In this document: piece after piece, positions 8,956 through 50,145 of the stretch
Layout: each line of letters opens with the position of its first letter
Position numbering within the stretch: position 1 is the stretch's first letter
From: a virus
Taxonomy: Duplodnaviria > Caudoviricetes
Length of the DNA: 64,000 nt
Reading direction: 5' to 3' (one strand)
Virus record (IMG/VR): IMGVR_UViG_3300028888_000052
Position numbers and translations under genes: made by a program
Notes under the pieces: generated by a model
The model's input: only the letters and a program-made list of their open reading frames with translations
The model's database searches: none
What the model was told of the DNA's origin: nothing

Positions 8956-9012
8956 TTAACATTATACTTATTTATATATAAAAATAATATTCATAAATTA
9001 TTTGCACAAAAA

Positions 9013-9042
9013 TTTGAAATTTTTATTTTATATACTATATTT
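9013..9042 (+). promoter_or_regulatory. Early promoter variant (TTGAA-N16-CTATATT)
   Basis: Same spacing as the other copies but lacks the TGTAA element; precedes the + block starting at 9072. Confidence 0.55.
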
Positions 9043-9071
9043 AATTATCAAAAAATAAATATTATTAAATA

Positions 9072-9344
9072 ATGAGACCAAGAATCAATTCAACATTTGG
9101 TATAATTAAAAGAAAGGAACTCGATAACTATTTAACAGAAAATCAGGTATATGGTTTTACTGTTAAGGTTAATGAAAGTACTTTTATTTATAGTTACCAT
9201 ATAATGTTTAGAAATACAAGAGAGCAACCAGAAATGCTTTTTATCGAGGTCTCTAAAGCATCTAAATTAGTTCTTAAGGCATGGACTAATAAAGGTAAGA
9301 ATTTCAAGACTATTGATGAACTTAAAAAATATACTAAAAGATGA
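9072..9344 (+). CDS. Hypothetical protein
   Basis: ORF after promoter motif; ATGA overlap with next gene. Confidence 0.55.
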   Translation: MRPRINSTFGIIKRKELDNYLTENQVYGFTVKVNESTFIYSYHIMFRNTREQPEMLFIEVSKASKLVLKAWTNKGKNFKTIDELKKYTKR

Positions 9345-9622
9345 TATCTGAAAGGTTAAAATCAAAGATCAAGAAATATTATGATGAACGTCCATTCTAT
9401 GATACATATCGTGGTTGGACAATTCGTAAGAGAGTTCAAGATTACCGATTACCTATAACAAAAGAAATCTTTCATACAGATATTTTTTACTGTTGTGATG
9501 TGACACCTGGATATAAATCTATTGAAGCAACACAATATGAAGAAGTTCTAAAATGGATAGATAAGCAAATTGAATTAGGAGAGAATCAAAAAGAAGATAT
9601 AAACCTTATAATGGATTTATAA
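9341..9622 (+). CDS. Hypothetical protein
   Basis: Translationally coupled ORF. Confidence 0.55.
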   Translation: MISERLKSKIKKYYDERPFYDTYRGWTIRKRVQDYRLPITKEIFHTDIFYCCDVTPGYKSIEATQYEEVLKWIDKQIELGENQKEDINLIMDL

Positions 9623-9682
9623 GGTAAACATAATAAAAATATTAACGTTATTGAATTTAATAATTCATATTGAAAATTAATT

Positions 9683-10156
9683 ATGATAGGAACTATGACA
9701 TTTAAGAAGTTCACTGGTGAAAAGCTGGAGAACGTATCTGACTACGTAAAGGAGTATGTAGCAGAGCACAAGGGTACGGACATCGAGATTATGATTGGTA
9801 CTGACTCTCAAAACAAGGGTAGGCATACCACTTATTCAACTGTTATTGTACTTTACACACCTGGACATGGTGGACACTGTATTTTCAAACGTTGGAAGAC
9901 AGATAAGGAAAAGGTTCGTCAAGTAAGATTGCTTAAGGAAGTTGAAGAATCTATTAATGTTGCGAATGAGCTTACAGAAGCCGGATGCCCAAAGCCAAAA
10001 TATATTGATATTGACATCAATCCTAATCCACAATATAAGTCTAATGAGGTTTATGCCACAGCTAAAGGTTGGGTAGAGTCTATGGGTTATGAAGTTCGCT
10101 TCAAGACTATTGCACCTCTTGTTACATCAGCAGCTGACTGGCTTGTTAGAATGTAA
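9683..10156 (+). CDS. RNase H-like YkuK (DUF458) family protein
   Basis: IMIGTDSQ, RLLKEVEESI, IDIDINP, SAAD motifs. Confidence 0.8.
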   Translation: MIGTMTFKKFTGEKLENVSDYVKEYVAEHKGTDIEIMIGTDSQNKGRHTTYSTVIVLYTPGHGGHCIFKRWKTDKEKVRQVRLLKEVEESINVANELTEAGCPKPKYIDIDINPNPQYKSNEVYATAKGWVESMGYEVRFKTIAPLVTSAADWLVRM

Positions 10157-10180
10157 AAAAATATATAAAAATACAAAAAT

Positions 10181-10206
10181 AAAGGAGTAACATTTGTTAC
10201 TCCTTT
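10181..10206. terminator. Bidirectional terminator between convergent genes
   Basis: AAAGGAGTAAC-attt-GTTACTCCTTT; nearly identical to the hairpin at 18562-18587. Confidence 0.8.
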
Positions 10207-10213
10207 TTTATAT

Positions 10214-11689
10214 TTATTTAATATAAAATCTTTGATTGAATATATTTTCTCTAATTTTGGTTTCAAGTTCATTTGGTATAAATTTTCCCATTTGAAAATA
10301 AATTTGATTATTAATACAATTAAATCTTGCTGTATAATATTTTACTTTTTTAGTATTAGAATATTCCGTTTCATTTGTATATATATAGTTATCAGTTTCT
10401 AAACGATATCTAACATTTGGTAATGATTGACCATCTTGACGCATTATTATATAACTATTATTGTCATAACATTGATTAACATATTCATGACCATCTAATC
10501 CGTATAAATATAATGGGTTAAATTCACCTTGAGTTAAAATTTCTGATGGGATATTATGATTTACAACATAAAAATCATTTTCATTATACATACCACCAGA
10601 GTCAGAAAATGTTTTATTTGTTATTTCAAAATATAATGAATTATTAAAATATGTATTTGGGTTAGCAAAAACATCAATATCACCATATTGTCCTTGAGAA
10701 GTTTTATAAACATCTTCTGATAAATTTTTAATATCTATTAAATATTCTAATACAACATTATTAGAATCATTATTTTGAATTGTAAATGTTGTTGATGAAT
10801 ATTCAGATAAAATTAAATTATCAATTATAATTTCACTATCATGATAAATACAATTTATTAAATTATTTTCTTTATCGAATATTTGTATATTATTTATATT
10901 ACCTAAATATTTTTTATCCTTTTTAAATAAACGTAATTGATAATTAATTTCAAATGCTGAATTATTGGTTATACTTAATTCTCTTTGGTTTGTTAATTCT
11001 TTTACTGTTTCCACTGAAGAAATTTCTAAAATTTTTATAGATGAACCAGAGCCAGAACCAGAACCAGAACCACCACTTGGATAATCAGGATATGTATATT
11101 GTACATTTATAGAATTACTAACTTGATTTCCTTTTATATCAAAAATCATTATATTTGCATCTATATTATGTTGACGAATCATTAATAATTGGTTATTTAA
11201 TTCTTCTATTGATAATGGTAAAGTATTCCATATCATATAAGAAGCCTCATCATTTACAATAATATAAAAATAAGGTATTGTTTTATTTATTTCTATATTA
11301 TTAATATTTTCTATTTCTAAGTATATTTTATATTGATCTTGATTATATGATAATTGTATAAGATCTTCTGATGTTTCAATTTCAATTTGTTCATCATTGT
11401 CGGATCCTGAATCAGAACCAGAACCAGCATTAATAGGCTCTTCTACTTGCTCATCAAATGGAATAATTTCTCCACCATGATTTATAATATATTGTTTCAA
11501 ATCATCGATATGATTGAAAATATTTCTAGGCTTGACAACTGGTACATATTTAGATGAATAGTAAACTTTTTCACATTCTTCTCCATCAAATAAAGCAGAT
11601 ACATTTACATCTTCTGCTCTACCTATTTTAAGACCATTGTCATTAAAGTTTTGGCCTAAATGTATAAGGGATATTTTTCTTAATGCCAT
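10214..11689 (-). CDS. Hypothetical (likely virion) protein with Gly-Ser linkers
   Basis: 491 aa; AGSGSDSGSD and SGGSGSGSGSGSS linkers encoded by GAACCA hexamer repeats. Confidence 0.5.
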   Translation of the reverse strand: MALRKISLIHLGQNFNDNGLKIGRAEDVNVSALFDGEECEKVYYSSKYVPVVKPRNIFNHIDDLKQYIINHGGEIIPFDEQVEEPINAGSGSDSGSDNDEQIEIETSEDLIQLSYNQDQYKIYLEIENINNIEINKTIPYFYIIVNDEASYMIWNTLPLSIEELNNQLLMIRQHNIDANIMIFDIKGNQVSNSINVQYTYPDYPSGGSGSGSGSGSSIKILEISSVETVKELTNQRELSITNNSAFEINYQLRLFKKDKKYLGNINNIQIFDKENNLINCIYHDSEIIIDNLILSEYSSTTFTIQNNDSNNVVLEYLIDIKNLSEDVYKTSQGQYGDIDVFANPNTYFNNSLYFEITNKTFSDSGGMYNENDFYVVNHNIPSEILTQGEFNPLYLYGLDGHEYVNQCYDNNSYIIMRQDGQSLPNVRYRLETDNYIYTNETEYSNTKKVKYYTARFNCINNQIYFQMGKFIPNELETKIRENIFNQRFYIK

Positions 11690-11708: not shown

Positions 11709-13268
11709 TTAAAAATAATCAACAATTTCTGATAATTTATTTTCTAATTCTTTACTCCAACCTTCTACACTATTAGTTACAAATTTTATATTAGGATTAT
11801 CTAAAGCCTTTTGAAACTCTTCTTTATATATTTTATTATTCCAAATTCCTAAACGAATTTCATCATCCTTTATAGGTTCTCCATGTTTGAAATAATTAAA
11901 GTAAATATCTTCTACAACATAACTTTCTTCAAACATATTAAATTTTTTCCATATTTCATTAATCTTGTTAAATTCAAAATAACATGGATAATGTATAGTA
12001 TAATTATAATGAGGAAGGTTTTCTCTATTTAATAATTGTTTTGTTTTCCATTTATCATGACTCCAATATGAAACTGGTGATTTTTCATTACCTGTAAAAT
12101 TATTAGCTCTATAATATATTCTTTTAATATCATCAATATTAAAAGGTTTTATAGGATAATAATCATCACATATCCATATAAATCCATCATATATTTTATG
12201 ATATTGTTCATATATTACTTTAAATTTGTTTTGAATATCTATATGAGGAAAATATTGATTAGGTGTTTTCTTGAATAACTTGAAATAAATAAATTCCACC
12301 CAAGGAAATTCTTTTTTCAAATTCAAATCAAATTCACCTATAACTATAAAATGATATTTGAATTTACAGAATTTTTTCCAACCAGTTAATGTCAATCTAA
12401 TTTCATTACCTTGTGCCCCATTATATTTATAAGGCATAACAACTAATATTTCTTCATTCATAAGGTTTTCTTTTAAATAATTCATATCAGGATTTATTTT
12501 GAAAAATGCTTCACATGTTCTTAGTTTACCAAAGAAATAACCACGTGACTTCATTTTCCAAACATATTCTTCCCAAGATTTTGTAATATAATGCCTTATA
12601 TATATTTTATCAAATACTGGTTTATTTCTATTTTTAGTAAAATTAGTTCTACAAAAATTACAATATTTGCTTGGTTGGTGAGTATATAAGAAATAATTTT
12701 CTTGATAAGTATTTAAGTTATAACAAGTTTTAGTAAGTGATTGTGGAGTTGCACTCGGTACATAACCTTGTATTTCTTTAGTATATGTTTCTACAATTCC
12801 TTTATCTTTGTAATTTGGTTTATTAACTAATCCATTTGCTCCATAACATTTCCATTGCATTATAAAAGCATCATAATCATTAAATAAAGATATCACATTT
12901 TGTAGATTATTATTTTCTAATGTTATAAACTCATCATTATCTATTACAAAGCACCAATCATACTTTTTTAATGTTTTCAAATAAGATAATCCTTTTCTAA
13001 TATAAATATATTGTGGATTATCATTATGATTGTCACTTTTAATTGTCTTTGATTTTATAACTTTATTTTTATCATCTCCACTTAATATAGATGTAATTGG
13101 AAGTAAAGTAACTTTATCATATTTATTAGTTATTCGTTCATGAGAATCACTACCAATATCTTCAAAAATAAAAATATGATCTATTCCTAAATTTAGATGA
13201 TATCGAATCCATTCATCTAAATATTCATGTTCATTTTTTATAACTGTTAAAATACAAGATGTGTTCAT
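11709..13268 (-). CDS. Two-domain glycosyltransferase (GT2/GT92-like N-terminal domain plus a second GT-A-like domain)
   Basis: KNEHEYLDEWIRYHLNLGIDHIFIFED, DWCFVIDNDEF, IRHYITKSWEEY; second domain EIRLTL...FIWICDDYY. Confidence 0.75.
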   Translation of the reverse strand: MNTSCILTVIKNEHEYLDEWIRYHLNLGIDHIFIFEDIGSDSHERITNKYDKVTLLPITSILSGDDKNKVIKSKTIKSDNHNDNPQYIYIRKGLSYLKTLKKYDWCFVIDNDEFITLENNNLQNVISLFNDYDAFIMQWKCYGANGLVNKPNYKDKGIVETYTKEIQGYVPSATPQSLTKTCYNLNTYQENYFLYTHQPSKYCNFCRTNFTKNRNKPVFDKIYIRHYITKSWEEYVWKMKSRGYFFGKLRTCEAFFKINPDMNYLKENLMNEEILVVMPYKYNGAQGNEIRLTLTGWKKFCKFKYHFIVIGEFDLNLKKEFPWVEFIYFKLFKKTPNQYFPHIDIQNKFKVIYEQYHKIYDGFIWICDDYYPIKPFNIDDIKRIYYRANNFTGNEKSPVSYWSHDKWKTKQLLNRENLPHYNYTIHYPCYFEFNKINEIWKKFNMFEESYVVEDIYFNYFKHGEPIKDDEIRLGIWNNKIYKEEFQKALDNPNIKFVTNSVEGWSKELENKLSEIVDYF

Positions 13269-18989: not shown

Positions 18990-19700
18990 TTATTTTCCTT
19001 CAAAATACCAACGTGCTTCTGCTTGGCGTCTTTTAATCAAACCTGGGTATTTTCTACCTTGAACATCTGATAAATGAGACCAAGTATTTCTAATTGCAGG
19101 ATTGTTTGGATTAGCAATAATCATTTTACAAATTTGTTTATTTAAGAATCCCATTCCAAAATTATAGCATCCTGAAGCTATTGCATCTTTTTGATTTTGA
19201 TTTAATTTAACTTTATTTGCATTAGCCCACCTATCAATACGATTTGCCGTATATTTAGCATGTTCTAAGAAAAGACCTTCTAATTCTTTTTGTGTCCATG
19301 TTCTTTTTATTGTGTCCATTAACTTACCATTTGGGTGATACAATAATCCATATCCATAAGTTAAATGACCTTTAGCATCATGTAAATCATAACCATTAAG
19401 ATCTTTTGAAGTCATAGTGTAGCCGAATTTTTTACCTGTCTCATATTGGCAAATAAAATTAATCATACCATCACTAAGTCCAGAATTATTAGTAACTTTA
19501 TTAGATGTTGTTTGTTGTGGTAATATAATAGCCCATGATTTAGGACCAACTACACCATCTGGGGTTAATCCTTTAGATTTTTGCCATTCTTTAACTTTTT
19601 TATCTGTATTAGGACCAAAGTTTCCATCTGGTGTCAAACCAAGATACTTTTGAAGTACCTTGACATCTTCTCCTTTAGAGCCTAATTTAATTGTAGTCAT
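18990..19700 (-). CDS. Endolysin: peptidoglycan-binding domain + GH24 lysozyme
   Basis: GSKGEDVKVLQ...DGNFGPNT..VKEWQ...GLTPDGVVGPKSW; YE, LTYGYG, LNQNQKDAIAS..YNFG, GLIKRRQAEARWY. Confidence 0.9.
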   Translation of the reverse strand: MTTIKLGSKGEDVKVLQKYLGLTPDGNFGPNTDKKVKEWQKSKGLTPDGVVGPKSWAIILPQQTTSNKVTNNSGLSDGMINFICQYETGKKFGYTMTSKDLNGYDLHDAKGHLTYGYGLLYHPNGKLMDTIKRTWTQKELEGLFLEHAKYTANRIDRWANANKVKLNQNQKDAIASGCYNFGMGFLNKQICKMIIANPNNPAIRNTWSHLSDVQGRKYPGLIKRRQAEARWYFEGK

Positions 19701-20347: not shown

Positions 20348-20580
20348 TATTTATTTGGAAATAATTTTGATTGAACTTCTTTAACATTTGTTTTAAATTT
20401 ACTACTGTGGTCATATAAGACTCCAAGTATAGACATCTTTGCTCCATTTGCAAGTTTTGGTAATAAATCATCAAGTTTTTCTCCTTCTATAAGTTTAAGA
20501 ATTAAAACTTGTGGGGTCATTTTATCAAAATCTGGTGCTGCATAGTGGTCTTCATTTATTCTTTGTATTAAATCTTTCAT
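20347..20580 (-). CDS. Small putative internal head protein
   Basis: MKDLIQRINED leader. Confidence 0.55.
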   Translation of the reverse strand: MKDLIQRINEDHYAAPDFDKMTPQVLILKLIEGEKLDDLLPKLANGAKMSILGVLYDHSSKFKTNVKEVQSKLFPNK

Positions 20581-22226
20581 TATTTCTCCTTTTCTTTATT
20601 TTTCTTTTCTTCAGCTTCTTTAGCTTTCTTTTCTGCTTCTTCTTTGAAACTATAAGCTAAATCATCTTCAAGAATATGTTTCTTTGCAGGATTAATTTGA
20701 TAAGCCATACGAGACATTACATCACGATTTATAAGAACTTTTTGTTTCTTATTACGATTATCAACTAATGCAAATTCTACATCAAGAAGTTTACGTGAAC
20801 CAACTTGTATACATGGTATAATAACTGTAGTACGTTCTTCTGTTTGTTGACCAACAATAGCATGTGATTCACCTTCTTTCTTGAATTGATATTTCTTACC
20901 ATCAATAGTGGCAATAACAAGATTACCTTTATAATCTACTGAATCACATCCAATAGTTGAAGCTTTAGCACCATTACCTGTATCAAATTTAGCTTCAAAT
21001 TCAAATTCATCATCATTATCCATAATGAATTTTACATTTTCAAGATATCCTATAGCCTTAGGAGCAAGTACTAATTCATTAACATCATTGATTTCATCAA
21101 GAAGGATTTCCATAAAGTTATCATCAATAACTTCAGAAATACCATCTGTACCTGGAGAAGCATTATATTCAAGAACAACATTATCTCCAACTTCAGGATT
21201 AGAACCTTTTACAAGTGGCATAATGTCAACAGCACACCAAGGCATACCAGAAATTTTAGCAACTTTTAATGCTATTTCTTCTTGTTCTGGAGTAAGAGTT
21301 ACTTTTTCAGCAGTAGCACCAAGTGAAACATTAGAACGGAAGTCACCACCAATCTTCTTACGTTTCATTTGTGCAAGTATTTTTTGGTGAGTTCTCATTG
21401 TTAATACATGAACACGGATATCACCACCATCAGCTTCTTCTTTCTTTTGTACTAATAATTCACGTTCTTCATCAACTGCAAATACCATTTGAAGCATTGA
21501 AAGAATTGTTTTACCAGTTTGCATTGTAACACCAGTTCCACCATGACCATCAAGTATCTTTACAACATATTCTTTCTTTTTATCTTCATCTTCATTCTTA
21601 CCAACATCTGGATAAATTTCTTTAAGTTTCTTCTTAAGAGATTCTTCACCTTTGTTTATATCATTTTTTGATATAAGAGTAAATTTAGGTTGAGGAATTT
21701 CATAACGTTCCATTAAAACAGATGATTGATATTTATTAGAAGCTTTCTTAGCTGCTTGAATAGGGTTAAGTACAAAGAATCCCCAATCTTGAAGTTCTTT
21801 AATAAGTTCCATACATTCTTCAGAATCTTGTGCACCAAGACGAGTTATAACAATTGTATCAACATTAGATTGTTCATCAATTTTATATTTATTCTCATTA
21901 TCGTGCCATTCGATTACATCATCTGTAGCTTTATAATCAACTTCTTCTGCAACAAATGGGAATATATCAACACCTTTACCTTTAACAGCTTGTTCAAGAT
22001 TCTTTAATGTTTTATTAGTTTTTGAATCTCTATCATTTGTAAAGATAATGATATTTTTGAAGAAATATCCTTTCTTTTTATCTTCTTTTTCAGCTTCAGT
22101 TATTTGTGTTTCTTGTACTGGAGTTTCTTCTTTTTTTGATTCTTTGATACGACCAGCATATCTAAATTTCAAATCATCAACTGACTTGATATTTCTATAA
22201 TCAATAATATCGTTTAAATTTTTCAT
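20580..22226 (-). CDS. RimK-family ATP-grasp ligase fused to a retropepsin-like (RimB/PF05618-type) protease
   Basis: ATP-grasp motifs NKY, VVKILDGHGGTGV, DIRVHV, DFRSNVSLGA, AVDIM, VLEYNASPG; protease motifs IGYLENV, AKFDTGNG, VLINRDVM. Confidence 0.85.
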   Translation of the reverse strand: MKNLNDIIDYRNIKSVDDLKFRYAGRIKESKKEETPVQETQITEAEKEDKKKGYFFKNIIIFTNDRDSKTNKTLKNLEQAVKGKGVDIFPFVAEEVDYKATDDVIEWHDNENKYKIDEQSNVDTIVITRLGAQDSEECMELIKELQDWGFFVLNPIQAAKKASNKYQSSVLMERYEIPQPKFTLISKNDINKGEESLKKKLKEIYPDVGKNEDEDKKKEYVVKILDGHGGTGVTMQTGKTILSMLQMVFAVDEERELLVQKKEEADGGDIRVHVLTMRTHQKILAQMKRKKIGGDFRSNVSLGATAEKVTLTPEQEEIALKVAKISGMPWCAVDIMPLVKGSNPEVGDNVVLEYNASPGTDGISEVIDDNFMEILLDEINDVNELVLAPKAIGYLENVKFIMDNDDEFEFEAKFDTGNGAKASTIGCDSVDYKGNLVIATIDGKKYQFKKEGESHAIVGQQTEERTTVIIPCIQVGSRKLLDVEFALVDNRNKKQKVLINRDVMSRMAYQINPAKKHILEDDLAYSFKEEAEKKAKEAEEKKNKEKEK

Positions 22227-22281
22227 AAATTATAAGTATTTTATATCTATATTTAATAATAAATATATTGACTTTAATAGG

Positions 22282-23313
22282 ATGTCAGAGTATAAAAAAT
22301 TAGAGAACTTAATTAAAGACAAAAAAATTCTATATATTCCAATTTATTCATGTTTTGATTACAAGACTAATGAATTGAATTTTAAGGCTGATGGAAATAT
22401 TAATAGATTTTTAACTACATTTTTCTTTTGTAGAAATTATAAATCTTTAACAATTTTATATCCACCAACAGGAAATAATATTAATTGGTTTGAAACAACT
22501 TGTAAAAATATATTACATGATGTTAATTTAGAACCATGTAGTTTTATTGTAAAATCTGCTAAAATTGAGAGAAGTCTTGATTTTGCAAATAATGTTTTCA
22601 ATAGTTTAAAGTGTCTTTATGAATATGATTTTATTATTGTAGAATCTCAACATTTGTTTTTGAAATTTTATAATAATGGATATAAGAATTTAATTTATTG
22701 GTGTCCAGTTTGTGCAACTAATGAAAAGACAAGAGATTTTCTTGAACCATTCAAAGAATTAGATAGATATATATTTAGTATTGCTGAACATACAATAGTA
22801 GCATCAGATGACCAAGTAACATATTATAAAACTATTTGTAAAGATAAAGAACCTATTCAAATTAAAAAACTTATTAATAGAATTTTACCATGTTTTAATT
22901 ATACAAAACAAAAAGATGTGATAGAATTATTCAATAAGTTTAATAGTTATCATAAAATATTCTTACCATTTAGATTAACAGATAGAGGTTATCAAATGCA
23001 AGAAATATTTGATTATCTTTATAATGAATATAGAGGAACAAAGTCATTTAAAGTTTTTTATACTAATCCTAATAATTGTGACATATATCAATTTGCAAAA
23101 AATGACTCTTATAAGAAATTATTCATAGATAATAATTTTATTCAAGTTAGTAAAGATAGAGATACTTATTATACAATTATTGATGATTGTAATGTAATTA
23201 TTCCTTATTTTGAAGATATTGAATTTATATGTCATGCGGCAATTGATGAATTCAAATTTGGTCATTGTACTGTATGTAAAAATTTGGAAGAATTTAAATC
23301 TATATTGAATTAA
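22282..23313 (+). CDS. Putative DNA glycosyltransferase (GT-B; arabinosyltransferase-like)
   Basis: ILYIPIYS...DGN, YWCPV, IFLPFRLTDRGY, YTNPN; from memory resembles putative arabinosyltransferases of RB69-like phages; first gene of the modification operon. Confidence 0.55.
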   Translation: MSEYKKLENLIKDKKILYIPIYSCFDYKTNELNFKADGNINRFLTTFFFCRNYKSLTILYPPTGNNINWFETTCKNILHDVNLEPCSFIVKSAKIERSLDFANNVFNSLKCLYEYDFIIVESQHLFLKFYNNGYKNLIYWCPVCATNEKTRDFLEPFKELDRYIFSIAEHTIVASDDQVTYYKTICKDKEPIQIKKLINRILPCFNYTKQKDVIELFNKFNSYHKIFLPFRLTDRGYQMQEIFDYLYNEYRGTKSFKVFYTNPNNCDIYQFAKNDSYKKLFIDNNFIQVSKDRDTYYTIIDDCNVIIPYFEDIEFICHAAIDEFKFGHCTVCKNLEEFKSILN

Positions 23314-23330
23314 ATATATATCTTATTGTT

Positions 23331-23987
23331 ATGCCACAAAAAATACAAGATAAATTATCAAGTACTTTAAGAATTTTTAGTGATTTAATTGAATCACCTA
23401 GTTGTATAGATTTAATAAATGAATTAAAAGAAGTAAAGAATCCAACATTTATATTTAGTGGAGTAGGAAAGAATTGGTATATTTGTGAGAAAGAAGTGAA
23501 GACATTTATATCGATGGGATTAAATGCTAAATCATTAGATTGCACGCATGCATTACATGGTGATTTAGGTATGCTTATGAATGACAAAGAGTTAAAATAT
23601 ATATTCTTTGTATCTAAGTCAGGCAAAACAAATGAGATGCATAAGCTTATAGATGTCATAGTTGATTTAAAAGAGAAGAATATCATCAAGAATATCAATT
23701 TAATTATGCTTTGTTTGAATCCAACTATAGAAGATTCGATAGATGCGACAAAGTTTGAGTTTATATTAAAACCATCTATTAAATTTAAAGATATTGCAAA
23801 CATTGAATTAGATGATAGAAATCTTATACCAACATTGTCTATTAATATAACACAAGGTGTCTTAGATTATATTGGAGTAAATATCTATGAAAATAATCCA
23901 GAATTAATTGAAAATTATAAATATAACCATCTTGGTGGCTCAAATGGAAGAGCATTAGGAATGGAAAAATATTTAGAAGAAATATGA
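23331..23987 (+). CDS. SIS-domain sugar-phosphate isomerase (KdsD/arabinose-5-phosphate isomerase-like, no CBS domains)
   Basis: FSGVGKN, HALHGDLG, VSKSGKTNE, IPTLS, HLGGSNG. Confidence 0.85.
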   Translation: MPQKIQDKLSSTLRIFSDLIESPSCIDLINELKEVKNPTFIFSGVGKNWYICEKEVKTFISMGLNAKSLDCTHALHGDLGMLMNDKELKYIFFVSKSGKTNEMHKLIDVIVDLKEKNIIKNINLIMLCLNPTIEDSIDATKFEFILKPSIKFKDIANIELDDRNLIPTLSINITQGVLDYIGVNIYENNPELIENYKYNHLGGSNGRALGMEKYLEEI

Positions 23988-25546
23988 ATATAATTATAGT
24001 AGCAGGTGGATTAGGTACAAGATTTCAAGATCTTTCAGTTTTTCCAAAAATTTTATTACCAACAAAAGCATATAACTCATTATTAGAACAAAATTATGAG
24101 ATATTTGTAAATGGATGGGATCATAAATTGTTTTTAATTATAAATGAAAAATATTATGATATGACAGTTAATTATTGTCATGTTAATAATATTGATGTAA
24201 AAATTATTAAGTCTACAAATACAAATGGATCATATAATACAATATTAAGTGTATATGATCAGATACCTCATGAAAATGTTTTATTTATTTGGTCAGATTT
24301 GGAATTGTCTTCTATAGATGATTCATTCAATCTAATAGATGATGATACAATATTCACTTATAATGGAGAATATAGATATGGTATAGATGATGGTAAAATT
24401 ACATATCATGATTTTTATGATGGTAATATTCCAGGAATTTATTATTTGACAAATCTTAATAGATATTTTTCTGATTATAGATTGGATGAAAATGATAATT
24501 ATGATTTAATAGAAGCAATTAAAGAATTTAATTATGATATTAATGCATGTGAGTATCAAGGTAAATTAGAAGAGTATAGAGATAAACAAACATATATAAA
24601 TCATATTAAAGAAACTAATTCAAATGTAGAACTGTCATTCAAAACAAGATTTTTTAATATGATTGAACCTGATTATTCAATACCGGGTGAATATAAAATC
24701 AAAAAGTGGGCGGTTAATTCTGATTATTATCATCTTATTAGAAAAGAATATGATTGGTATAATAAGCTTAAACAACAAGATTTAGGTAATTATACTTATG
24801 ATATGATTGTACCAAAAGTATATGATGGTATGATAAAAAATAATACAGGATTTGTAATGGCTTTATTGGATAATTATATGCCATTACATGAATTTATTAA
24901 AACAAGACCAGTAGAAGATGTTCAAAGAGTATATAAGACAATTCATCTCCATTTAGATGCATTATCAAGATGCAAGAAAGAAGTTGATGATTTAGATTTT
25001 TATCAAGATTTGAAAAAAGAAATTATCACAAAAGTAATAGATAGATGCGAGAAAATTAAATATATGCTTATTAAATATGAACCAGAACAATTACAAGTTT
25101 TATTAGAGGAAACATATAATTATTTATGTGATAATACAGAAATTATAAATCATAAGACTTTATATTGTGTTTGTCATGGTGATTTAAATGGATCTAATGT
25201 TTTAGTTCATAAAATTACAAATGATGTTAAGTTTATAGATCCACGTGGATATTTTGGTTATACAACATTTTATGGTTGGCAAGATTATGAATATGCAAAA
25301 TTATTATATTGTTTAGATGGGTATGATGATTTTAATAATCTTCCACAAGTATATGGATTAGATATTCCACAAAGATTGAAGTGGTTTGGTAAGATTAACT
25401 ATCTTAATAAAAAGAAATATAAAGTACTTGTAGGAGTAATTTGGATAGCATTAGCAGGTTATATTTCACAAGATATTATGAAAGCAAATATAGCTTATGA
25501 GTATGGTATACAAATGTTGCAAGAGTCATTAAAGGAAAATGAGTAA
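23984..25546 (+). CDS. Sugar-phosphate nucleotidyltransferase fused to an APH/choline-kinase-like phosphotransferase
   Basis: N-terminal IIVAGGLGTRF...PKILL and WSD; C-terminal CHGDLNGSNVL...KFIDPRGYFG...YEYAKL. Confidence 0.8.
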   Translation: MNIIIVAGGLGTRFQDLSVFPKILLPTKAYNSLLEQNYEIFVNGWDHKLFLIINEKYYDMTVNYCHVNNIDVKIIKSTNTNGSYNTILSVYDQIPHENVLFIWSDLELSSIDDSFNLIDDDTIFTYNGEYRYGIDDGKITYHDFYDGNIPGIYYLTNLNRYFSDYRLDENDNYDLIEAIKEFNYDINACEYQGKLEEYRDKQTYINHIKETNSNVELSFKTRFFNMIEPDYSIPGEYKIKKWAVNSDYYHLIRKEYDWYNKLKQQDLGNYTYDMIVPKVYDGMIKNNTGFVMALLDNYMPLHEFIKTRPVEDVQRVYKTIHLHLDALSRCKKEVDDLDFYQDLKKEIITKVIDRCEKIKYMLIKYEPEQLQVLLEETYNYLCDNTEIINHKTLYCVCHGDLNGSNVLVHKITNDVKFIDPRGYFGYTTFYGWQDYEYAKLLYCLDGYDDFNNLPQVYGLDIPQRLKWFGKINYLNKKKYKVLVGVIWIALAGYISQDIMKANIAYEYGIQMLQESLKENE

Positions 25547-26096
25547 GAAATTAATAGTAATAGAAGGATTTGATAGATGTGGCAAAGATACTTTAATGTC
25601 AGATCTATCAAATCTTAATAATGATTTTTATATTTATGGTAATGATTTGACAGGATTGCCAAAATATGATAAAGAACAAGAAGAATTTTTAGTTTGGTTA
25701 AATAAATTCATTAATAAACAAGTTAATGATCTGAATGAATTATTTAAAACACATGATACAATTGTCATGTGTAGATTGTTGATTTCTGATGAAGTATATA
25801 GCACTTTATTTAATAGAGAGCATACAGCTATTAAATATATGGATCAACTTAAAGATGTAGAGATAATTCATTATTGTTTATTATTTAAGAATTTTGATGA
25901 ATATTGTGATAGATTGAAAAAAATTGGAGATGAAAATATCCAATATGATTATGAAAATTTTAATAAAATTAATCAATTATATTTAGATAAACTTCAAGAA
26001 GTAAATTACAAATATTATATAAATTATATTTATTCATATACATCTAAAAGAAGTATTTTAGAAAATTTTTATACTTATTATGATAAAGTTAAATAA
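25539..26096 (+). CDS. Deoxynucleoside monophosphate kinase (thymidylate kinase-like)
   Basis: P-loop LIVIEGFDRCGKDTL; R..ISDEVYS..FNR. Confidence 0.75.
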   Translation: MSKKLIVIEGFDRCGKDTLMSDLSNLNNDFYIYGNDLTGLPKYDKEQEEFLVWLNKFINKQVNDLNELFKTHDTIVMCRLLISDEVYSTLFNREHTAIKYMDQLKDVEIIHYCLLFKNFDEYCDRLKKIGDENIQYDYENFNKINQLYLDKLQEVNYKYYINYIYSYTSKRSILENFYTYYDKVK

Positions 26097-27324
26097 TTTT
26101 ACAAAAGGAGAAAAGAAAGGAAAGACCATAGGAATTTTTAGCCCAAGTAGATTATCACCATATAAAGAGACAAAATTACCTGGTTGGCAAGAGTCATATA
26201 ATCTTATAAAATTCTTGAAAGATTATGTTGGTTATGACAAAGTATATATATTGAATTGGTATAAGAATGACAAGAGATATGAAAAGCTTAAAGAGCAATA
26301 TCCATATCTTTATAACTTAAAGAATATAGAACAAGCTTCTAAAGATATTGATGAGATATTACAAAAGCCAGATGGGTTAGTATGTTTTGGTGGAGCTTTA
26401 CACCCAACATATTATTATATTTGTTCATTGATTTGGTATAAGAGAAATGATCCTAATTTCAAATTATATTATTATGATCATGACCCACAATTTAATAAAT
26501 TCAATTTTGTAAAAGGAATATCTTCAAGAAAATCTTTAATAAATGTTGGAATGGGAGATTTGGAAAAAGAATATTCTGATATTTATTTAGAGCACCAAAA
26601 AGAATTAATAGAATATATTGATAACAATACTATTGGTCTTTATGGCGGTTTAGATTATGACTTATATTGCAAAAAACTTAAGGGTGATATGCCCAATATG
26701 AAACAATGGTTATATTTTGACATCAATGAATATTCTTTTGCTAATAATTTTGATTTCTCAAAGATTTTAACTGATATTAAGTTTGAAGATAAATATAAGT
26801 TTGGATATTTTGGTATTAAACGTAGAAATAAAATTAGACAAGATATCATCAATAATTTATTAGGTCAATTAGATAAATCCGGAATTATTATTGGTAATGT
26901 TAGTGAAATTATTGATTGTTCTTCTAAGTTTAATTGTATAGAATCTATGCAAATACCAGATTTGTATTATTTCTTGAATAACAATATTAAGTCATCATTA
27001 TTTATAACTGACCCAGCAAATTGGAATAATTATAAAAGTTTTAGATTTTTTGAGAATTTACTTTTAGATTATGTAGGTTTTATTTATAAGAAACAAGATG
27101 TTAATAAAATCTATATTAATAATGAAGAACTTAAATCATACATATATGTTGATGAAGATGATTTCTTAGGAAAAGTAAATCAAATATCTAGTGATGAGAA
27201 ATTATATAAGCATTTAGTTTATCTTGAAAGAAAAGAGTTTTATACCCAAATGTCATCATATATGTTAGACGAGAATAAAGTAATATTTGAAGATTGGTTA
27301 AATAAGCATAAAGATTATGAATAA
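26080..27324 (+). CDS. Putative DNA glycosyltransferase, T4 beta-glucosyltransferase-like GT-B
   Basis: ESYNLIKFLK, YYYDHDPQF, FGYFGIKRRNKIR, KSFRFFENL parallel T4 BGT FTDP, YGGSFRSGQR and TLRVWE motifs. Confidence 0.6.
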   Translation: MIKLNNFTKGEKKGKTIGIFSPSRLSPYKETKLPGWQESYNLIKFLKDYVGYDKVYILNWYKNDKRYEKLKEQYPYLYNLKNIEQASKDIDEILQKPDGLVCFGGALHPTYYYICSLIWYKRNDPNFKLYYYDHDPQFNKFNFVKGISSRKSLINVGMGDLEKEYSDIYLEHQKELIEYIDNNTIGLYGGLDYDLYCKKLKGDMPNMKQWLYFDINEYSFANNFDFSKILTDIKFEDKYKFGYFGIKRRNKIRQDIINNLLGQLDKSGIIIGNVSEIIDCSSKFNCIESMQIPDLYYFLNNNIKSSLFITDPANWNNYKSFRFFENLLLDYVGFIYKKQDVNKIYINNEELKSYIYVDEDDFLGKVNQISSDEKLYKHLVYLERKEFYTQMSSYMLDENKVIFEDWLNKHKDYE

Positions 27325-28348
27325 ACAATTATCTGATAAAATATTTATATGTGGTCCATGTGCAGTTGAATCTAAGGAACAATTATTAGATATTGCAAAA
27401 GGATTAAAAGAAAATAATATAAATTGTCTTTTTAGAGCAGGTGTTTGGAAGCCAAGAACTAATCCTGGTAATTTTGAAGGTTTAGGAGAAATTGCAATCA
27501 AATGGATGTGTGAAGTTCGTAGAATATATGGATTTCAAATAGGTTGGGAAGTAGCTACCGAAGAACATATTTTGTTATCTCTTAAATATAAACCAGATTT
27601 TTTATGGATAGGAGCTAGAACTACGGTAAATCCATTTATGGTTGAAAAAATTGCCCAATTATTAGGAGATACAGATATTTCTATTTTTGTAAAAAATCCA
27701 TCAAATTCTGATTTTTCTCTTTGGTGTGGTGCTATTGAGAGATTATTAAATCATAATGTAAATGTAGTTGGAGTTATTCATCGTGGATTTTCTTCACAAA
27801 ACTTAGCAGATTATCGTAATGCACCTATGTGGTCAATTCCTATTAAACTTAAGAATAAATTCCCTAATTTATTATTGTTAGGAGATCCAAGTCACATGGG
27901 AGGTCATGATTTTCTTATTAAGGAAATTTCTCAAAAAATGATGAATTTGAATTATGATGGATTAATGATTGAAGTCCATAATAATCCTTTAGAAGCTTGG
28001 ACTGATGCTAAACAACAAATTACTCCCGAAGATTTAAAAGATATATTAGATACATTAGAAATACCTATCGAAAACACTAATAATGGTTTAGTTGAATATA
28101 GAATGCAAATTGATGAAATTGATGACCAAATTCTTTCATTAGTTAAACAAAGATTCGATATTACTAAAAAAATAGGTGAATGGAAACAAGAACATAATGT
28201 AGCTATATTCCAACAAGGTAGATATGAAGAAATATTAAAGAAAAATGAGATTAGAGCTAAACGATATAATTTAGATTTAGATTTAATAAATAATATCTTT
28301 AATGTTATACACGAAAAATCAGTAGAACAACAATTGAATAATGTATAA
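27317..28348 (+). CDS. DAHP synthase (type I-beta) with C-terminal chorismate mutase, Bacteroidota-type
   Basis: GPCAVES, RAGVWKPRT, WIGART, KNP, HRGF, DPSH, GLMIEVH, WTDAKQQ; C-terminal AroQ motif YRMQIDEIDDQILSLVKQR..I...IG..K. Confidence 0.92.
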   Translation: MNKQLSDKIFICGPCAVESKEQLLDIAKGLKENNINCLFRAGVWKPRTNPGNFEGLGEIAIKWMCEVRRIYGFQIGWEVATEEHILLSLKYKPDFLWIGARTTVNPFMVEKIAQLLGDTDISIFVKNPSNSDFSLWCGAIERLLNHNVNVVGVIHRGFSSQNLADYRNAPMWSIPIKLKNKFPNLLLLGDPSHMGGHDFLIKEISQKMMNLNYDGLMIEVHNNPLEAWTDAKQQITPEDLKDILDTLEIPIENTNNGLVEYRMQIDEIDDQILSLVKQRFDITKKIGEWKQEHNVAIFQQGRYEEILKKNEIRAKRYNLDLDLINNIFNVIHEKSVEQQLNNV

Positions 28349-28928
28349 AAATCGTCAAAAATTAGAAGTTTATAATAATTGGTTTGAGTATTTTAAAGAT
28401 TCTATAAGTAAAGATCATTTAGGATATAAAATTATATTTGTAAGTGATTGTGATGGTATTTTAACAGATGGTCGTAGCTATTTCAATGAAGTTAAGACTC
28501 ATAAGAGTTATGGATCCTATGATAAAGAAGCCGTCAAATTCATATGTGATTATATGGATGATGTAATATATTTTGTATCAGATGATAAAATAGGTTCTAA
28601 GATAACTGAGAATAGAATTAATCATCTAAAAAAATCTACTAATAATAAGCAAGTTTATTTCATGGTTCAATCACCTCAAGAAAGATATGAGTTGGTTAAA
28701 TCTTTGAAAACTCCAAAAAATATAGTTGTATTTATAGGAGATTCATTATCGGATATTCCAACATTATCTGTAGCTGATATTGCTATGACAACTAATAATG
28801 CACCTGGTGAAGTAAAGAAATATTGTAATTACATATCTTTATTAAATGGCGGAGTTGGTGGATTTGCTGATTGTATTTTTCACTTTTATGAAAATTTAAA
28901 AGATGTTAAATCTATTTTAAATATATAA
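28341..28928 (+). CDS. HAD phosphatase, KdsC-like
   Basis: VSDCDGILTDG, FIGDSLSDI, GGVGGFAD. Confidence 0.85.
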   Translation: MYKNRQKLEVYNNWFEYFKDSISKDHLGYKIIFVSDCDGILTDGRSYFNEVKTHKSYGSYDKEAVKFICDYMDDVIYFVSDDKIGSKITENRINHLKKSTNNKQVYFMVQSPQERYELVKSLKTPKNIVVFIGDSLSDIPTLSVADIAMTTNNAPGEVKKYCNYISLLNGGVGGFADCIFHFYENLKDVKSILNI

Positions 28929-28948
28929 ATATATGTTAAAATTTGTGA

Positions 28949-30040
28949 ATGGTTAACCAATTTAAAGTAGGATGTAATTTTGATTTAAAGTTAATAGACA
29001 AAGCAGTAGAATTAAACGAGAAATATAAAGGTAAAGCAGAAATTAAAGAATGGTTTGGTAGTGATGCACAAAATCATTTTGTAACTGCAAGACCAAAATG
29101 GAGATTACCAGAGATTGATGAAAAATTCTTTAAGGAATTTATTCAAAGATCAAGAGATAATGGTATTGTATTTAATTATACAATGAATAGCATTCAACCT
29201 TATGGATCAAAAGCAAATATGGTTGAACATAAACAAGAAATTCAAGATTTTGTTAAGAAACTTGAAGATATGGGTGTTTATCGTATCACATTTGCTAATC
29301 CAATGATGGGAATGTTTATTAGAGAAGTATCAAATATTGAATTAGAAATAAGTTGTATTTCACATATAGATACAGTTACACAATTCAAATATTTTCATGA
29401 GACATTAGGAGTTAATAAATTCTGTAATTCAATTTTGAAAAATAGAAATAGAGATTTCTTGAAAAATGTAGCAGAATATTGTAATGCTAATGGTATTATT
29501 CTTGAATTACTTGCTAATGAATTTTGTGGAGTAGCTGGCCCAAAATATGCAACACATTGCCCATATCGTGATTCTTGTTATTTATGTCATGCAACAAATG
29601 TGACAAAAGAAGATAGTATGTCATATGATAATTATCCAATGCATTTTTGTATGTTTGCAAGAGATGATCATAGTGATGAGGCTTGGTTAAGAATGAGATG
29701 GATTAGACCAGAGGATTTACATTATTACAATGACATTGGAATTAATTATTTCAAGATTTCTGGACGTACAGGTAGCACAGAATACGTTGCCAAGATGATG
29801 GAAGCATATATGTCAGAAAATTGGGAAGGTAATTTATTAAATCTTTGGAAACCACTACAAACAATATATAATGGCAAGAATGAATTTGAAGAAGAATTAC
29901 CAATACAGATTGATAATAAGAAATTAGATGGATTCTTAGACCATTGGTTTGATAAGAATTTTGAATGTGAAAATGAGATGTGTGGTACAACTTGTAATTA
30001 TTGTGAAAGATTTATGAATAAAATCAAAGGTAATGTTTAA
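28949..30040 (+). CDS. Peptidase U32-family Fe-S protein (probable prephenate-dependent hydroxylase)
   Basis: LELLANEFC...HCPYRDSCY...FC cysteine set, WIRPEDL..Y...GINYFKISGR, C-terminal CENEMCGTTCNYC. Confidence 0.85.
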   Translation: MVNQFKVGCNFDLKLIDKAVELNEKYKGKAEIKEWFGSDAQNHFVTARPKWRLPEIDEKFFKEFIQRSRDNGIVFNYTMNSIQPYGSKANMVEHKQEIQDFVKKLEDMGVYRITFANPMMGMFIREVSNIELEISCISHIDTVTQFKYFHETLGVNKFCNSILKNRNRDFLKNVAEYCNANGIILELLANEFCGVAGPKYATHCPYRDSCYLCHATNVTKEDSMSYDNYPMHFCMFARDDHSDEAWLRMRWIRPEDLHYYNDIGINYFKISGRTGSTEYVAKMMEAYMSENWEGNLLNLWKPLQTIYNGKNEFEEELPIQIDNKKLDGFLDHWFDKNFECENEMCGTTCNYCERFMNKIKGNV

Positions 30041-30051
30041 ACATTACCTTT
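30026..30051. terminator. Bidirectional terminator overlapping both convergent stop codons
   Basis: Palindrome AAAGGTAATGTTT/AAACATTACCTTT followed by a T-run. Confidence 0.7.
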
Positions 30052-30373
30052 TTTTTATGTATTTATTTTTTGAAGATTTATTATTTGTGACTTGTACTAT
30101 TATATCTTTTAATTTCTGTATATAATCTTTATTATCTTCTGGGTATATATCATTATCCACGAAATTCACAAATTCTTGTAATTGATTTTTTAATTCTAAA
30201 TTATCATTTAATAGTAGTTCTAATTCTTTTACATTAAATTTTGTTTTATTATATTCCGCAACTAATGTCAAAAATTCTGATAATTGATTTGGATTGAATT
30301 CAAACCATTTATCTAACATCCAAAATAAATTGTTATCTAATTCTTCTAATATAAATTCATTTAATGTTTTCAT
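30044..30373 (-). CDS. Putative internal head protein
   Basis: MKTLNEFILEE leader. Confidence 0.6.
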   Translation of the reverse strand: MKTLNEFILEELDNNLFWMLDKWFEFNPNQLSEFLTLVAEYNKTKFNVKELELLLNDNLELKNQLQEFVNFVDNDIYPEDNKDYIQKLKDIIVQVTNNKSSKNKYIKKR

Positions 30374-31032
30374 TTTTTATAAACTGCTATTTCACCATCT
30401 TTATTTTTCTTTATATCAAAATACTTTTCATATAATTTTGGTTTAGTATTATATTCTTTAATATTTAATGTCAAACCTTTATAACCTGAAAGTGATTTAA
30501 TTTCTTTAATAACAATGTTGATTAATCCTTCACTAATACCTGAATTAAAATGATTTTTATCTATTTGCATACTTAATATATGGTCATAATCTTTATACTC
30601 TAAAAATTCTGAAGGTCTTTCATATTTATCATGTGTTATAAAGAATAAACAACCATATACATTATCTTTATCTTCAGCAACTGCTATTCTTATTTTATTA
30701 TCATATCCTTTTTCAACAATATCTTTACCTTTATTAAGATTGTTGTTTTTGTAAATCTTCTCTTTTATTTGGTCATATTTATAAATATTATATTCGATTT
30801 TATTTTCTTCTGTATCTTGTTTATCTGAAGATTTTTCTGAAGATGTTTTCGAAGGTTCCAAAGTATGATGCTCTGGTTTTTCTTTTTTCTTTTTCTTGAA
30901 TTTTCCTTTAATCCAACTCCATGCTTTCTTAACACCATCTTTAAATTTTCCTTCATCTATTTGTTCTTCTAACAAGAATTTCAAGTCTTCTTCAATTTGG
31001 TATTTTATTAAATATTCTTTTAAGCTTTCCAT
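30370..31032 (-). CDS. GNAT-fold acetyltransferase-like protein with capsid-targeting-like leader
   Basis: IAVAEDKDNVYGCL...ILSMQIDKNHFNSGISEGLI...LTLNI...KLYEKY. Confidence 0.6.
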   Translation of the reverse strand: MESLKEYLIKYQIEEDLKFLLEEQIDEGKFKDGVKKAWSWIKGKFKKKKKEKPEHHTLEPSKTSSEKSSDKQDTEENKIEYNIYKYDQIKEKIYKNNNLNKGKDIVEKGYDNKIRIAVAEDKDNVYGCLFFITHDKYERPSEFLEYKDYDHILSMQIDKNHFNSGISEGLINIVIKEIKSLSGYKGLTLNIKEYNTKPKLYEKYFDIKKNKDGEIAVYKK

Positions 31033-43001: not shown

Positions 43002-43219
43002 TGGCAAAACAAGGTTCAATAGAGCAATTTGGTATTATAACAGAAAATCTTTCTAATTCAATGTTTAGGGTTGAATTAGATAATGGTATTGAAATATTGT
43101 GTCATATATCAGGGAAGATTCGTATTAATAATATTAGATTGATGACAGGTGATAAAGTAAAAGTTGAGATGAGTCCTTATGATTTGAGTAAAGGAAGAAT
43201 TGTTACAAGATTGAAATGA
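43001..43219 (+). CDS. infA: Translation initiation factor IF-1
   Basis: [65 protein letters not shown], 72 aa. Confidence 0.95.
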
Positions 43220-50009: not shown

Positions 50010-50145
50010 AGAAAAAATTTATTTTTAAATAGAAGATTTGAAATAACAACGTTTGACAATTCTATTTTAAATTAAATTAACAGAAAGATTAAAATTGTTT
50101 AAAAACAATTTAATCACATTTGACAAAAATATTTTTACATTTATT

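Follow-up and report, generated by a model that had tools for sequence, protein, structure and literature searches.

An eight-gene phage operon that probably serves DNA hypermodification, with a U32-family protein as candidate prephenate-dependent hydroxylase

The 64-kb stretch of phage DNA (Caudoviricetes) in IMG/VR record IMGVR_UViG_3300028888_000052, which is part of a larger genome and is called the window throughout, carries at 22282-30040 an operon of eight + strand open reading frames (ORFs), here g1 to g8, that very probably serves DNA hypermodification. At a probability of about 0.6, we propose that the U32-family protein encoded by the last gene hydroxylates deoxycytidine monophosphate (dCMP) with prephenate as the oxygen donor, replacing an O2-dependent hydroxylase. 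The product is most likely arabinosyl-5-hydroxycytosine carrying a second sugar, made in a jumbo phage that replicates without oxygen. Glycosylated 5-hydroxycytosine has been described only recently, and its one known entry step needs O2. For phages of the gut, rumen, and sediments, the operon suggests an O2-independent route, which would also explain the unassigned U32 gene present in 222 phage records (gp50 in phage RB69).

A relative of the arabinosyl-5-hydroxycytosine gene clusters

In phage RB69 and the Acinetobacter phage DLP3, cytosine is replaced by poly-arabosylated 5-hydroxycytosine (2026 paper, PMC13326640). The 5-hydroxy-dCMP is made by a flavin-binding, O2-using homologue of ThyA, and the sugar donor is provided by an arabinose-5-phosphate isomerase, a bifunctional kinase/nucleotidyltransferase (AfhE in HY126), and the HAD phosphatase AfhF, while GT-B-type glycosyltransferases act on the DNA, with DLP3 gp79 as the first arabinosyltransferase (PMC13326640). 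The operon in the window comprises the following genes and one terminator, with DAHP synthase (DAHPS) and chorismate mutase (CM) combined in a single protein:

22282..23313 (+), g1: GT-B glycosyltransferase, homologue of the DNA 5-hydroxycytosine arabinosyltransferase DLP3 gp79 / RB69 gp46:47
23331..23987 (+), g2: single-domain SIS sugar-phosphate isomerase, arabinose-5-phosphate isomerase type (phrog_5670, 4e-25)
23984..25546 (+), g3: sugar-1-phosphate nucleotidyltransferase (N-terminal) and APH/choline-kinase-type sugar kinase (C-terminal), AfhE type
25539..26096 (+), g4: Tmk/YorR-like P-loop nucleotide kinase (TIGR00041, 3.7e-5; phrog_761, 1e-9)
26080..27324 (+), g5: second glycosyltransferase, T4 beta-glucosyltransferase-like
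27317..28348 (+), g6: bifunctional DAHPS of type I-beta (~27317-28069) and AroQ chorismate mutase (~28070-28348)
28341..28928 (+), g7: KdsC/YrbI-family HAD phosphatase (NCBIfam matches to KDN-9-P phosphatase and KdsC)
28949..30040 (+), g8: U32-family Fe-S protein, candidate prephenate-dependent pyrimidine C5 hydroxylase
30026-30051 (.): bidirectional terminator hairpin with an 11-bp stem and a T-run on the + strand, spanning the stop codon of the U32 gene

The initial annotation had described eight contiguous, mostly overlapping + strand genes that end at a single terminator, and both the ORF list and a hairpin search bear this out: the coordinates agree exactly, five of the seven gene junctions overlap by 4 to 17 nt, and the hairpin, which closes the operon, is the sole terminator-like site within 21800-30600. 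Promoter-like sites in the operon region are no more frequent than expected by chance. The families assigned to the eight genes likewise hold, each on profile, Pfam, or fold evidence, and the resemblance to RB69 genes stated there reflects true homology for the isomerase (gp55, 29% identity), the NTP-transferase (gp53:52, 24-30%), and the U32 protein (gp50, 52%). The cassette is kept in 20 other metagenomic phage loci, which is conservation far beyond chance. Four layouts occur among these related loci:

Type A (window): DAHPS-CM, HAD, U32
Type B (L007, L014-16, L019, L020, L024): U32 and a bare 107-aa CM
Type C (L008, L017): U32, followed directly by DAHPS-CM
Type D: no CM adjoining U32

Both glycosyltransferases appear to be related to enzymes that act on DNA, g1 to DLP3 gp79 and g5 to the T4 beta-glucosyltransferase (BGT), in agreement with the earlier claim that they glycosylate DNA. 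The g1 family profile aligns with DLP3 gp79 over 293 columns (hhalign 97.8%, E 1.2e-12), the g1 orthologue of locus L023 matches RB69 gp47 and gp46 in tblastn searches, and the AlphaFold2 (AF2) model of g1 (pLDDT 87.4, pTM 0.87) retrieves GT-B enzymes with Foldseek, including MshA (3c4q), PimB', and BshA. By sequence, the g1 profile has no match in PDB, and g1 has no Pfam match. We regard g1 as a putative GT-B enzyme of the gp79/gp46:47 type that adjoins a Tmk-like gene in the operon and is homologous to a DNA glycosyltransferase. The g5 family profile matches T4 BGT (1bgt/1nzd) at E 5.8e-6 over the C-terminal ~85 residues only (residues 311-396 versus 247-329), and its feature similarity to PF09198 clusters is 0.96; g5 has no Pfam match, and its AF2 model (pLDDT 46) is too poor for a fold search. 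This second transferase is variable, being absent from the closest IMG/VR relative and from L003/L010 and having 24% identity in type B cassettes. After replication, g1 would put the first sugar on the 5-hydroxyl in DNA and g5 would add the second.

The sugar donor would be made by g2, g3, and g7. The isomerase g2 matches KpsF/GutQ/KdsD proteins at 3e-12 to 8e-9 (KpsF/GutQ 3e-12) and aligns with RB69 gp55 over 214 aa at the identity given above. For g3, Pfam recognizes the NTP_transferase and APH domains (phrog_4098, 1.5e-67), identity is 30% to RB69 gp52 and 24% to gp53, and g3 shares invariant GxGxR/K and HGD..N motifs with DLP3 gp82, TH1_060 of phage Thanatos, and gp165 of phage PTm1. By homology, the pair represents a putative arabinose-5-phosphate isomerase and a bifunctional AfhE-type kinase/nucleotidyltransferase. 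In the proposed pathway, g2 would convert ribulose-5-phosphate to arabinose-5-phosphate, the kinase domain of g3 and the phosphatase g7 would together yield arabinose-1-phosphate, and the nucleotidyltransferase domain of g3 would turn this into nucleoside diphosphate (NDP)-arabinose. Homology of g1, g2, g3, and g8 to genes of the RB69 and DLP3 clusters makes the operon a relative of a known DNA hypermodification system.

The g7 family profile matches 2p9j (4e-20) and the KdsC structure 1j8d (3e-16) in PDB; similarity of g7 to DLP3 gp81 or RB69 gp51 was not detectable, which places it outside the AfhF type. A KdsC-family HAD gene directly follows the nucleotidyltransferase-kinase gene in cassette types B, C, and D, and since it there takes the position of AfhF without similarity to it, g7 is best seen as an analogue, not an orthologue, of AfhF. 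In the type B and C cassettes (L007, L008, L014-L017, L019, L020, L024), the nucleotidyltransferase-kinase and HAD genes occur with no SIS gene within 10 kb, and this nucleotidyltransferase-kinase is only ~29% identical to g3; the sugar of these cassettes may be other than arabinose.

The candidate hydroxylase and its supply of prephenate

A ThyA-type hydroxylase is missing from the operon. Searching the 64 kb of the window with RB69 gp48 (tblastn) gave no ThyA homologue, and PF00303 is absent from all 16 related IMG/VR records with a U32 protein at least 50% identical. Seven of these records are at least 90% complete, namely genomes of 294, 283, and 44 kb that are complete by direct terminal repeats (DTR) and four more; as a positive control, RB69 gp48 scores 2e-16 in the same search. 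In RB69, DLP3, Thanatos, PTm1, and L026, where a ThyA homologue exists, it is located inside the cassette. The absence of any such homologue (the gp42-like gene that the initial annotation had suggested looking for) from the window and the complete relatives leaves the U32 protein as the candidate hydroxylase. Judged from its sequence, L026 (9980-14659 of IMGVR_UViG_3300037424_000553, a ~97 kb phage with 55% GC) is a further lineage with both candidate hydroxylases, with a U32 protein at 34% identity encoded 3 kb from an RB69 gp48-like ThyA homologue.

The U32 protein g8 matches PF01136 with 37.2 bits (cut-off 22.4) and phrog_5757 at 1e-130, with no matching NCBIfam model. It aligns over its full length with RB69 gp50 (RB69ORF050c), which has been listed only as a 'sugar or heterocycle reductase' (PMC13326640). 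The 222 phage records with a g8-type gene are mostly those of T4-like phages of Enterobacterales. Bacterial U32 proteins take part in O2-independent hydroxylations: RlhA forms ho5C2501 of 23S rRNA, TrhP forms ho5U34 of tRNA, and UbiU/UbiV act in the synthesis of ubiquinone (PMC10990095, PMC6599085). UbiU/V take the oxygen from prephenate, and 5-hydroxycytidine is the product of RlhA; direct hydroxylase activity of any U32 protein has not yet been reconstituted (PMC10990095).

Cysteines C193, C204, C210, C213 and C340, C345, C349, C352 are invariant in 13 phage U32 proteins, and the first four constitute a putative 4Fe-4S cluster motif. Of these, C210 aligns with a cysteine that is invariant in RlhA, TrhP, UbiU, and UbiV, and the spacing of C193, C204, and C213 differs from the bacterial motif. 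The best Escherichia coli paralogue of the phage U32 profile is RlhA (E 0.0012, 205 columns), a weak hhalign match obtained with single E. coli sequences. From this context, g8 would hydroxylate C5 of dCMP with prephenate as oxygen donor, and it would take the place of the ThyA-type enzyme that makes 5-hydroxy-dCMP in RB69 and DLP3 with O2 and a flavin. The earlier claim that U32 makes a hydroxylated deoxynucleoside monophosphate (dNMP) is strengthened in so far as U32 is the candidate left here, with the limit that in RB69 and DLP3 it is the ThyA homologue, and not U32, for which the making of 5-hydroxy-dCMP has been demonstrated. We found no literature that links U32, prephenate, phages, and hydroxycytosine, in a search that did not cover Mahler et al. 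2025 and He et al. (HY126), which may discuss U32.

The gene that we consider most informative is g6, because it would supply prephenate; it was listed in the initial annotation and left unused there. The link between U32 and CM recurs across the cassettes. In type B, the bare CM gene overlaps the U32 stop codon by 8 nt (in L019 it begins just after the stop), and its product is 64-65% identical to the CM domain of the fused phage proteins, which indicates that DAHPS was lost while CM was retained beside U32. The pair is not universal, as RB69 gp49, the small ORF after U32, has no detectable likeness to CM; a U32-CM fusion protein was not found.

Shewanella phage Thanatos-1 is a T4-like phage (Straboviridae) with an O-linked pentose on DNA cytosine (PMC12838424). 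In its genome, the 85-aa ORF TH1_066 (L031 11886-12143) overlaps the stop codon of the U32 gene TH1_065. The product of TH1_066 is CM-like (CM_2 with 34.7 bits, above the Pfam cut-off; hhalign 90%); the record carries it unannotated as a 'hypothetical protein', and the Thanatos paper does not discuss it.

Both domains of g6 are recognized by Pfam (DAHP_synth_1 at 7e-26 and CM_2 at 1e-20). The GPC, KPRT, and DPSH motifs of the DAHPS domain are invariant, as are CM residues R11, R28, K39, R51, S84, and Q88 in all CM copies. The DAHPS domain would raise the flux through the shikimate pathway and the CM domain would convert chorismate to prephenate, which would meet the demand of one prephenate per modified base. 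The nearest cellular relatives are from Bacteroidota, mostly Bacteroidales (43-50% identity), and the architecture with a C-terminal CM is likewise that of Bacteroidota; in a DAHPS-CM tree (86 rows, quick IQ-TREE), the phage sequences sit on long branches. We claim a putative Bacteroidota origin for g6, and the host, probably an anaerobe, is taken to be a member of the Bacteroidota solely from this architecture and these relatives. The Bacteroidota host named in the initial annotation thus gains a basis, one that comes from DAHPS-CM only. Two DAHPS-CM homologues (P0147, P0149) that were considered as HAD fusions were rejected, the extra length being due to internal duplications.

With its KdsD-like isomerase, KdsA-superfamily enzyme, and KdsC-like phosphatase, the operon resembles the Kdo pathway, and the trio could make a Kdo- or DAH-like ulosonic acid for lipopolysaccharide, capsule, or virion proteins, to which a GT2 gene on the late strand (11709-13268) might be added as a partner. 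We hold this to be very improbable. NCBIfam models assign g6 to DAHPS (1e-40) and not to KDO8PS (4e-11), in line with its KPRT motif and intact CM domain, and there is no KdsB-type cytidylyltransferase among the eight operon proteins. Cassettes that lack DAHPS still contain SIS and HAD, and HAD is kept even where SIS is missing. In addition, g1 is a homologue of a DNA glycosyltransferase, g5 resembles one in its C-terminal region, and the minimal module of L023 lies among replication genes.

Oxygen, the modified base, and the level of modification

The distribution of the two candidate hydroxylases follows the oxygen relations of the phages. Homologues of AfhE are found in 374 phage records, of which 57 belong to Acinetobacter phages; the genera listed for the 222 records with U32 do not include Acinetobacter. 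The U32 profile finds RB69 and Thanatos at E ~1e-150 and finds nothing in DLP3, Octan, AbTZA1, and Acj9 (four Acinetobacter phage genera, all with AfhE), nor in Tenacibaculum phage PTm1, where AfhE is present. DLP3 and PTm1 carry an annotated ThyA homologue, and RB69 and Thanatos, whose hosts are facultative anaerobes, have U32 and a ThyA homologue together.

The window itself encodes a class III ribonucleotide reductase (RNR), i.e., NrdD at 56880-59444 (+; PF13597, 2e-122; ATP-cone and glycyl-radical domains present), along with the radical-SAM enzyme that activates it, NrdG, at 59895-60395 (+; Fer4_12, 2e-40). Among 17 related records, NrdD occurs in eight and the O2-dependent NrdB in none, and NrdB is encoded by RB69, DLP3, Thanatos, and PTm1. 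The resulting pattern is a ThyA homologue alone in phages of aerobes, both proteins in phages of facultative hosts, and U32 (often with CM) alone where the phage is equipped for anoxia.

A broader claim, that phage U32 proteins are the first prephenate-dependent deoxynucleotide hydroxylases, with phages of anaerobes relying on U32 only and their own CM, those of facultative hosts on both routes, and those of strict aerobes on ThyA only, has in our estimation slightly better than even odds. The jumbo phage PTm1 of an aerobic Bacteroidota host encodes, in gp165-167 (L030 8308-11246), an AfhE-like protein together with a ThyA homologue, and a histidine phosphatase takes the place of HAD. It lacks U32, and these genes probably constitute a glycosyl-hydroxy(methyl)pyrimidine system that has yet to be characterised.

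The pattern bears on the idea that U32 and CM form an RNA-modification module, acting on a tRNA wobble uridine or an rRNA cytidine to tune translation, that is merely co-located with the operon. The proven nucleic-acid substrates of U32 proteins are tRNA and rRNA only, by routes that both depend on prephenate, and RlhA is the best E. coli match of the phage protein. We nonetheless give this idea very little credence. In all lineages examined, the U32 gene lies within the cassette, in L023 it stands between the DNA glycosyltransferase and the DNA polymerase, and the phage protein has no RNA-binding extension. Its loss from phages of aerobes that keep the rest of the cassette and a ThyA homologue fits functional substitution and argues against a role in RNA.

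A hydroxylase encoded outside the window (a divergent ThyA or ThyX, or another enzyme) is an unlikely explanation, although the least improbable of the alternatives; U32 would then serve as an accessory redox enzyme for the sugar or the base, with DAHPS-CM as a gene of general aromatic amino acid metabolism that is linked by chance. It draws on the sufficiency of the ThyA homologue in RB69 and DLP3, on the flavoenzyme ThyX in four of the five near-complete relatives, on the U32 cassettes without CM, and on the visible genome being limited to 64 kb. Against it, the seven relatives at least 90% complete lack any member of the ThyA family, the complete 44-kb genome of L023 has U32 and a glycosyltransferase with neither ThyA nor ThyX, and ThyX in the relatives lies more than 100 kb from the cassette together with dCMP deaminase, the usual supply of dTMP. 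Further evidence against it is that U32 and CM adjoin in three different gene orders and again in a phage of the Straboviridae, that CM is retained after loss of DAHPS, and that U32 is absent exactly where O2 is always available.

Whether hydroxylation would act on the nucleotide or on the polymer is best judged from L023 (IMGVR_UViG_3300045988_181920), a complete 44-kb DTR phage with a minimal module at 8235-11089. The module runs from a dUTPase_2-type all-alpha NTP pyrophosphatase through a Tmk-like kinase and a g1-type glycosyltransferase to U32; a primase gene and one ORF of unknown function precede it, Pol III alpha follows, and most of these genes overlap. NDP-sugar genes, ThyA, ThyX, and CM are absent. 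From its sequence, this gene set is as would be expected for nucleotide-level replacement, i.e., hydrolysis of the canonical dNTP, dNMP hydroxylation, re-phosphorylation, and glycosylation of the DNA.

In the window, re-phosphorylation would fall to g4, which is predicted to phosphorylate the modified dNMP and so make it available for incorporation by the polymerase. Its profile gives weak matches to YorR (3kb2/2axp) and yeast Tmk and a P-loop match to RB69 gp45, and none of the cassettes examined lacks a Tmk-like kinase. In four loci, the Tmk-like kinase and the g1-type glycosyltransferase are fused in one ORF of 550-605 aa, which hints that the "kinase" domain may act physically together with the DNA glycosyltransferase:

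L018, 2594-4411: fusion of glycosyltransferase and Tmk-like kinase
L021 and L025, 5243-7060: the same fusion
L022, 5360-7012: the same fusion

Post-replicative action, in which U32 hydroxylates cytosines or uracils in polymeric DNA, the glycosyltransferases add sugar to the hydroxyl, and the Tmk-like protein has another role, is in our view improbable, a shade more so than a hydroxylase outside the window. The characterised nucleic-acid U32 enzymes all modify polymers, no dCTPase of the gp56, MazG, or dUTPase_2 type was found in the window or the jumbo relatives, and the four loci above join a Tmk-like domain to the DNA glycosyltransferase in one protein; the missing dCTPase and the fusions keep post-replicative hydroxylation a live alternative. 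The opposing evidence consists of the Tmk-like kinase shared by all cassettes examined, the nucleotide-level logic of L023, where pyrophosphatase and kinase directly precede the glycosyltransferase and U32, the size of the phage U32 protein (363 aa), which lacks the C-terminal extensions of RlhA (653 aa) and TrhP (453 aa), and the making of the RB69 base as a mononucleotide.

The proposed hydroxylation of dCMP places the modification on cytosine. In the jumbo relatives, dCMP deaminase and ThyX are encoded far from the cassette (more than 100 kb). The two enzymes together constitute the normal supply of dTMP, which makes cytosine the more likely modified base.

Several points weigh against a prephenate-dependent U32 hydroxylase acting on dCMP. 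The role of phage U32 is inferred from context and not from chemistry, RlhA and TrhP, the U32 enzymes known to modify nucleic acids, have RNA polymers and not mononucleotides as substrates, and the ThyA homologues of RB69 and DLP3 need no further phage protein to produce 5-hydroxy-dC in E. coli (PMC13326640). Relatives with the same gene order as the window (type A) are 14-53% complete, and a ThyA gene may lie elsewhere in the window's own genome. No CM is encoded anywhere in four nearly complete genomes with U32 cassettes (G008, G012, G013, G015), and the U32 profile finds nothing in the E. coli phage Dhakavirus dhabil, so that U32 is optional in phages of facultative hosts. The dCTPase that the initial annotation had suggested looking for was found neither in the window nor in the jumbo relatives; the gp56-type search was negative with a single query sequence and no positive control, and searches for the MazG and dUTPase_2 families were negative in the jumbo relatives. 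In addition, the kinase assignment of g4 relies on weak scores, g7 is not orthologous to AfhF, the DAHPS-CM tree resolves neither donor order nor number of captures, and the host and its oxygen physiology are themselves inferred.

Neighbouring genes, significance, and comparison with known systems

The operon is flanked by genes on the opposite strand, with a RimK-type ATP-grasp gene upstream (20580-22226, -), transcribed divergently from it, and small late-type ORFs downstream. In L007 and L008, too, RimK-type genes precede the cassette at this position, and one of them also carries NLPC_P60. Further features of the window are:

9683-10156 (+): RNase H-like protein
11709-13268 (-): 519-aa protein encoded on the late strand, with an N-terminal GT2 domain (PF13704, 3e-14)
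18990-19700 (-): lysozyme with a peptidoglycan-binding domain
43216-43956 (+): N6/N4 DNA methyltransferase (PF01555, 2e-33), a possible second layer of DNA modification
50095-51258 (+): T4 gp32-like ssDNA-binding protein

The GT2 protein, which has no relation to the GT-B enzymes of the operon, may glycosylate components of the virion or the host. Along with a gp2-like gene of L008, the gp32-like, lysozyme, and RNase H-like genes suggest that these phages form a distant T4-like lineage. Complete relatives of ~283-294 kb make these jumbo phages, not the megaphages named in the initial annotation.

If the proposed mechanism is true, the soluble, dCMP-sized substrate could for the first time make prephenate-dependent hydroxylation by a U32 protein tractable to assay in vitro. 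We know of no earlier case of a phage auxiliary metabolic gene of the shikimate pathway that supplies an oxygen-atom donor rather than amino acids, and the operon would, if the mechanism holds, contain the first. The sugar-coated DNA would be shielded from restriction and CRISPR nucleases and resist them, and it may distort the sequencing signal in gut viromes.

The closest known counterpart is the RB69/HY126/DLP3 system (RB69 gp45-55, DLP3 gp76-83), with which the operon shares an isomerase, an AfhE-type nucleotidyltransferase-kinase followed by a HAD phosphatase, a Tmk-like kinase adjoining a GT-B enzyme of the gp79/gp46:47 type, and extra glycosyltransferases. As in RB69, a U32 gene is part of the cluster (52% identical to g8). 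The operon differs from the RB69 and DLP3 clusters in having no ThyA-type synthase, in the added DAHPS-CM between the kinase and glycosyltransferase genes and the HAD-U32 pair, in a phosphatase of the KdsC family, and in a second transferase that is T4 BGT-like; its carrier is a low-GC jumbo phage with only an anaerobic RNR.

The proposed scheme is also similar to the glucosylation of hydroxymethylcytosine in T4, where dCMP is modified at C5, phosphorylated, incorporated, and glycosylated in the DNA, and g5 appears to be related to T4 BGT. Unlike in T4, the acceptor would be a hydroxyl on C5 and not a hydroxymethyl group, the phage would make its own NDP-sugar, and the window has no homologue of gp42, gp56, or gp1.

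With the bacterial U32 hydroxylases, g8 shares the Pfam U32 domain, and its conserved cysteines lie in the same region, with C210 aligned and the other three differently spaced. Its proposed chemistry, C5 hydroxylation of a pyrimidine, is that of RlhA and TrhP, and the phage U32 gene is genomically linked to CM, the maker of prephenate. It is only 16-21% identical to the E. coli U32 paralogues, has its own C-terminal CX4CX3CX2C motif, lacks the long C-terminal RNA-binding extensions of RlhA and TrhP, and would act on a deoxynucleotide destined for DNA. The bifunctional DAH7P synthase-AroQ CM enzymes of Bacteroidota (43-50% identity; Bacteroidales and others) have the same domain order and catalytic motifs as g6, which differs in being phage-encoded within a putative DNA-modification operon and in having sister phages that keep the CM domain alone beside U32. 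Finally, the dual aerobic/anaerobic logic proposed for phages of the RB69 type would parallel that of TrhO/TrhP and UbiIHF/UbiUV in E. coli.

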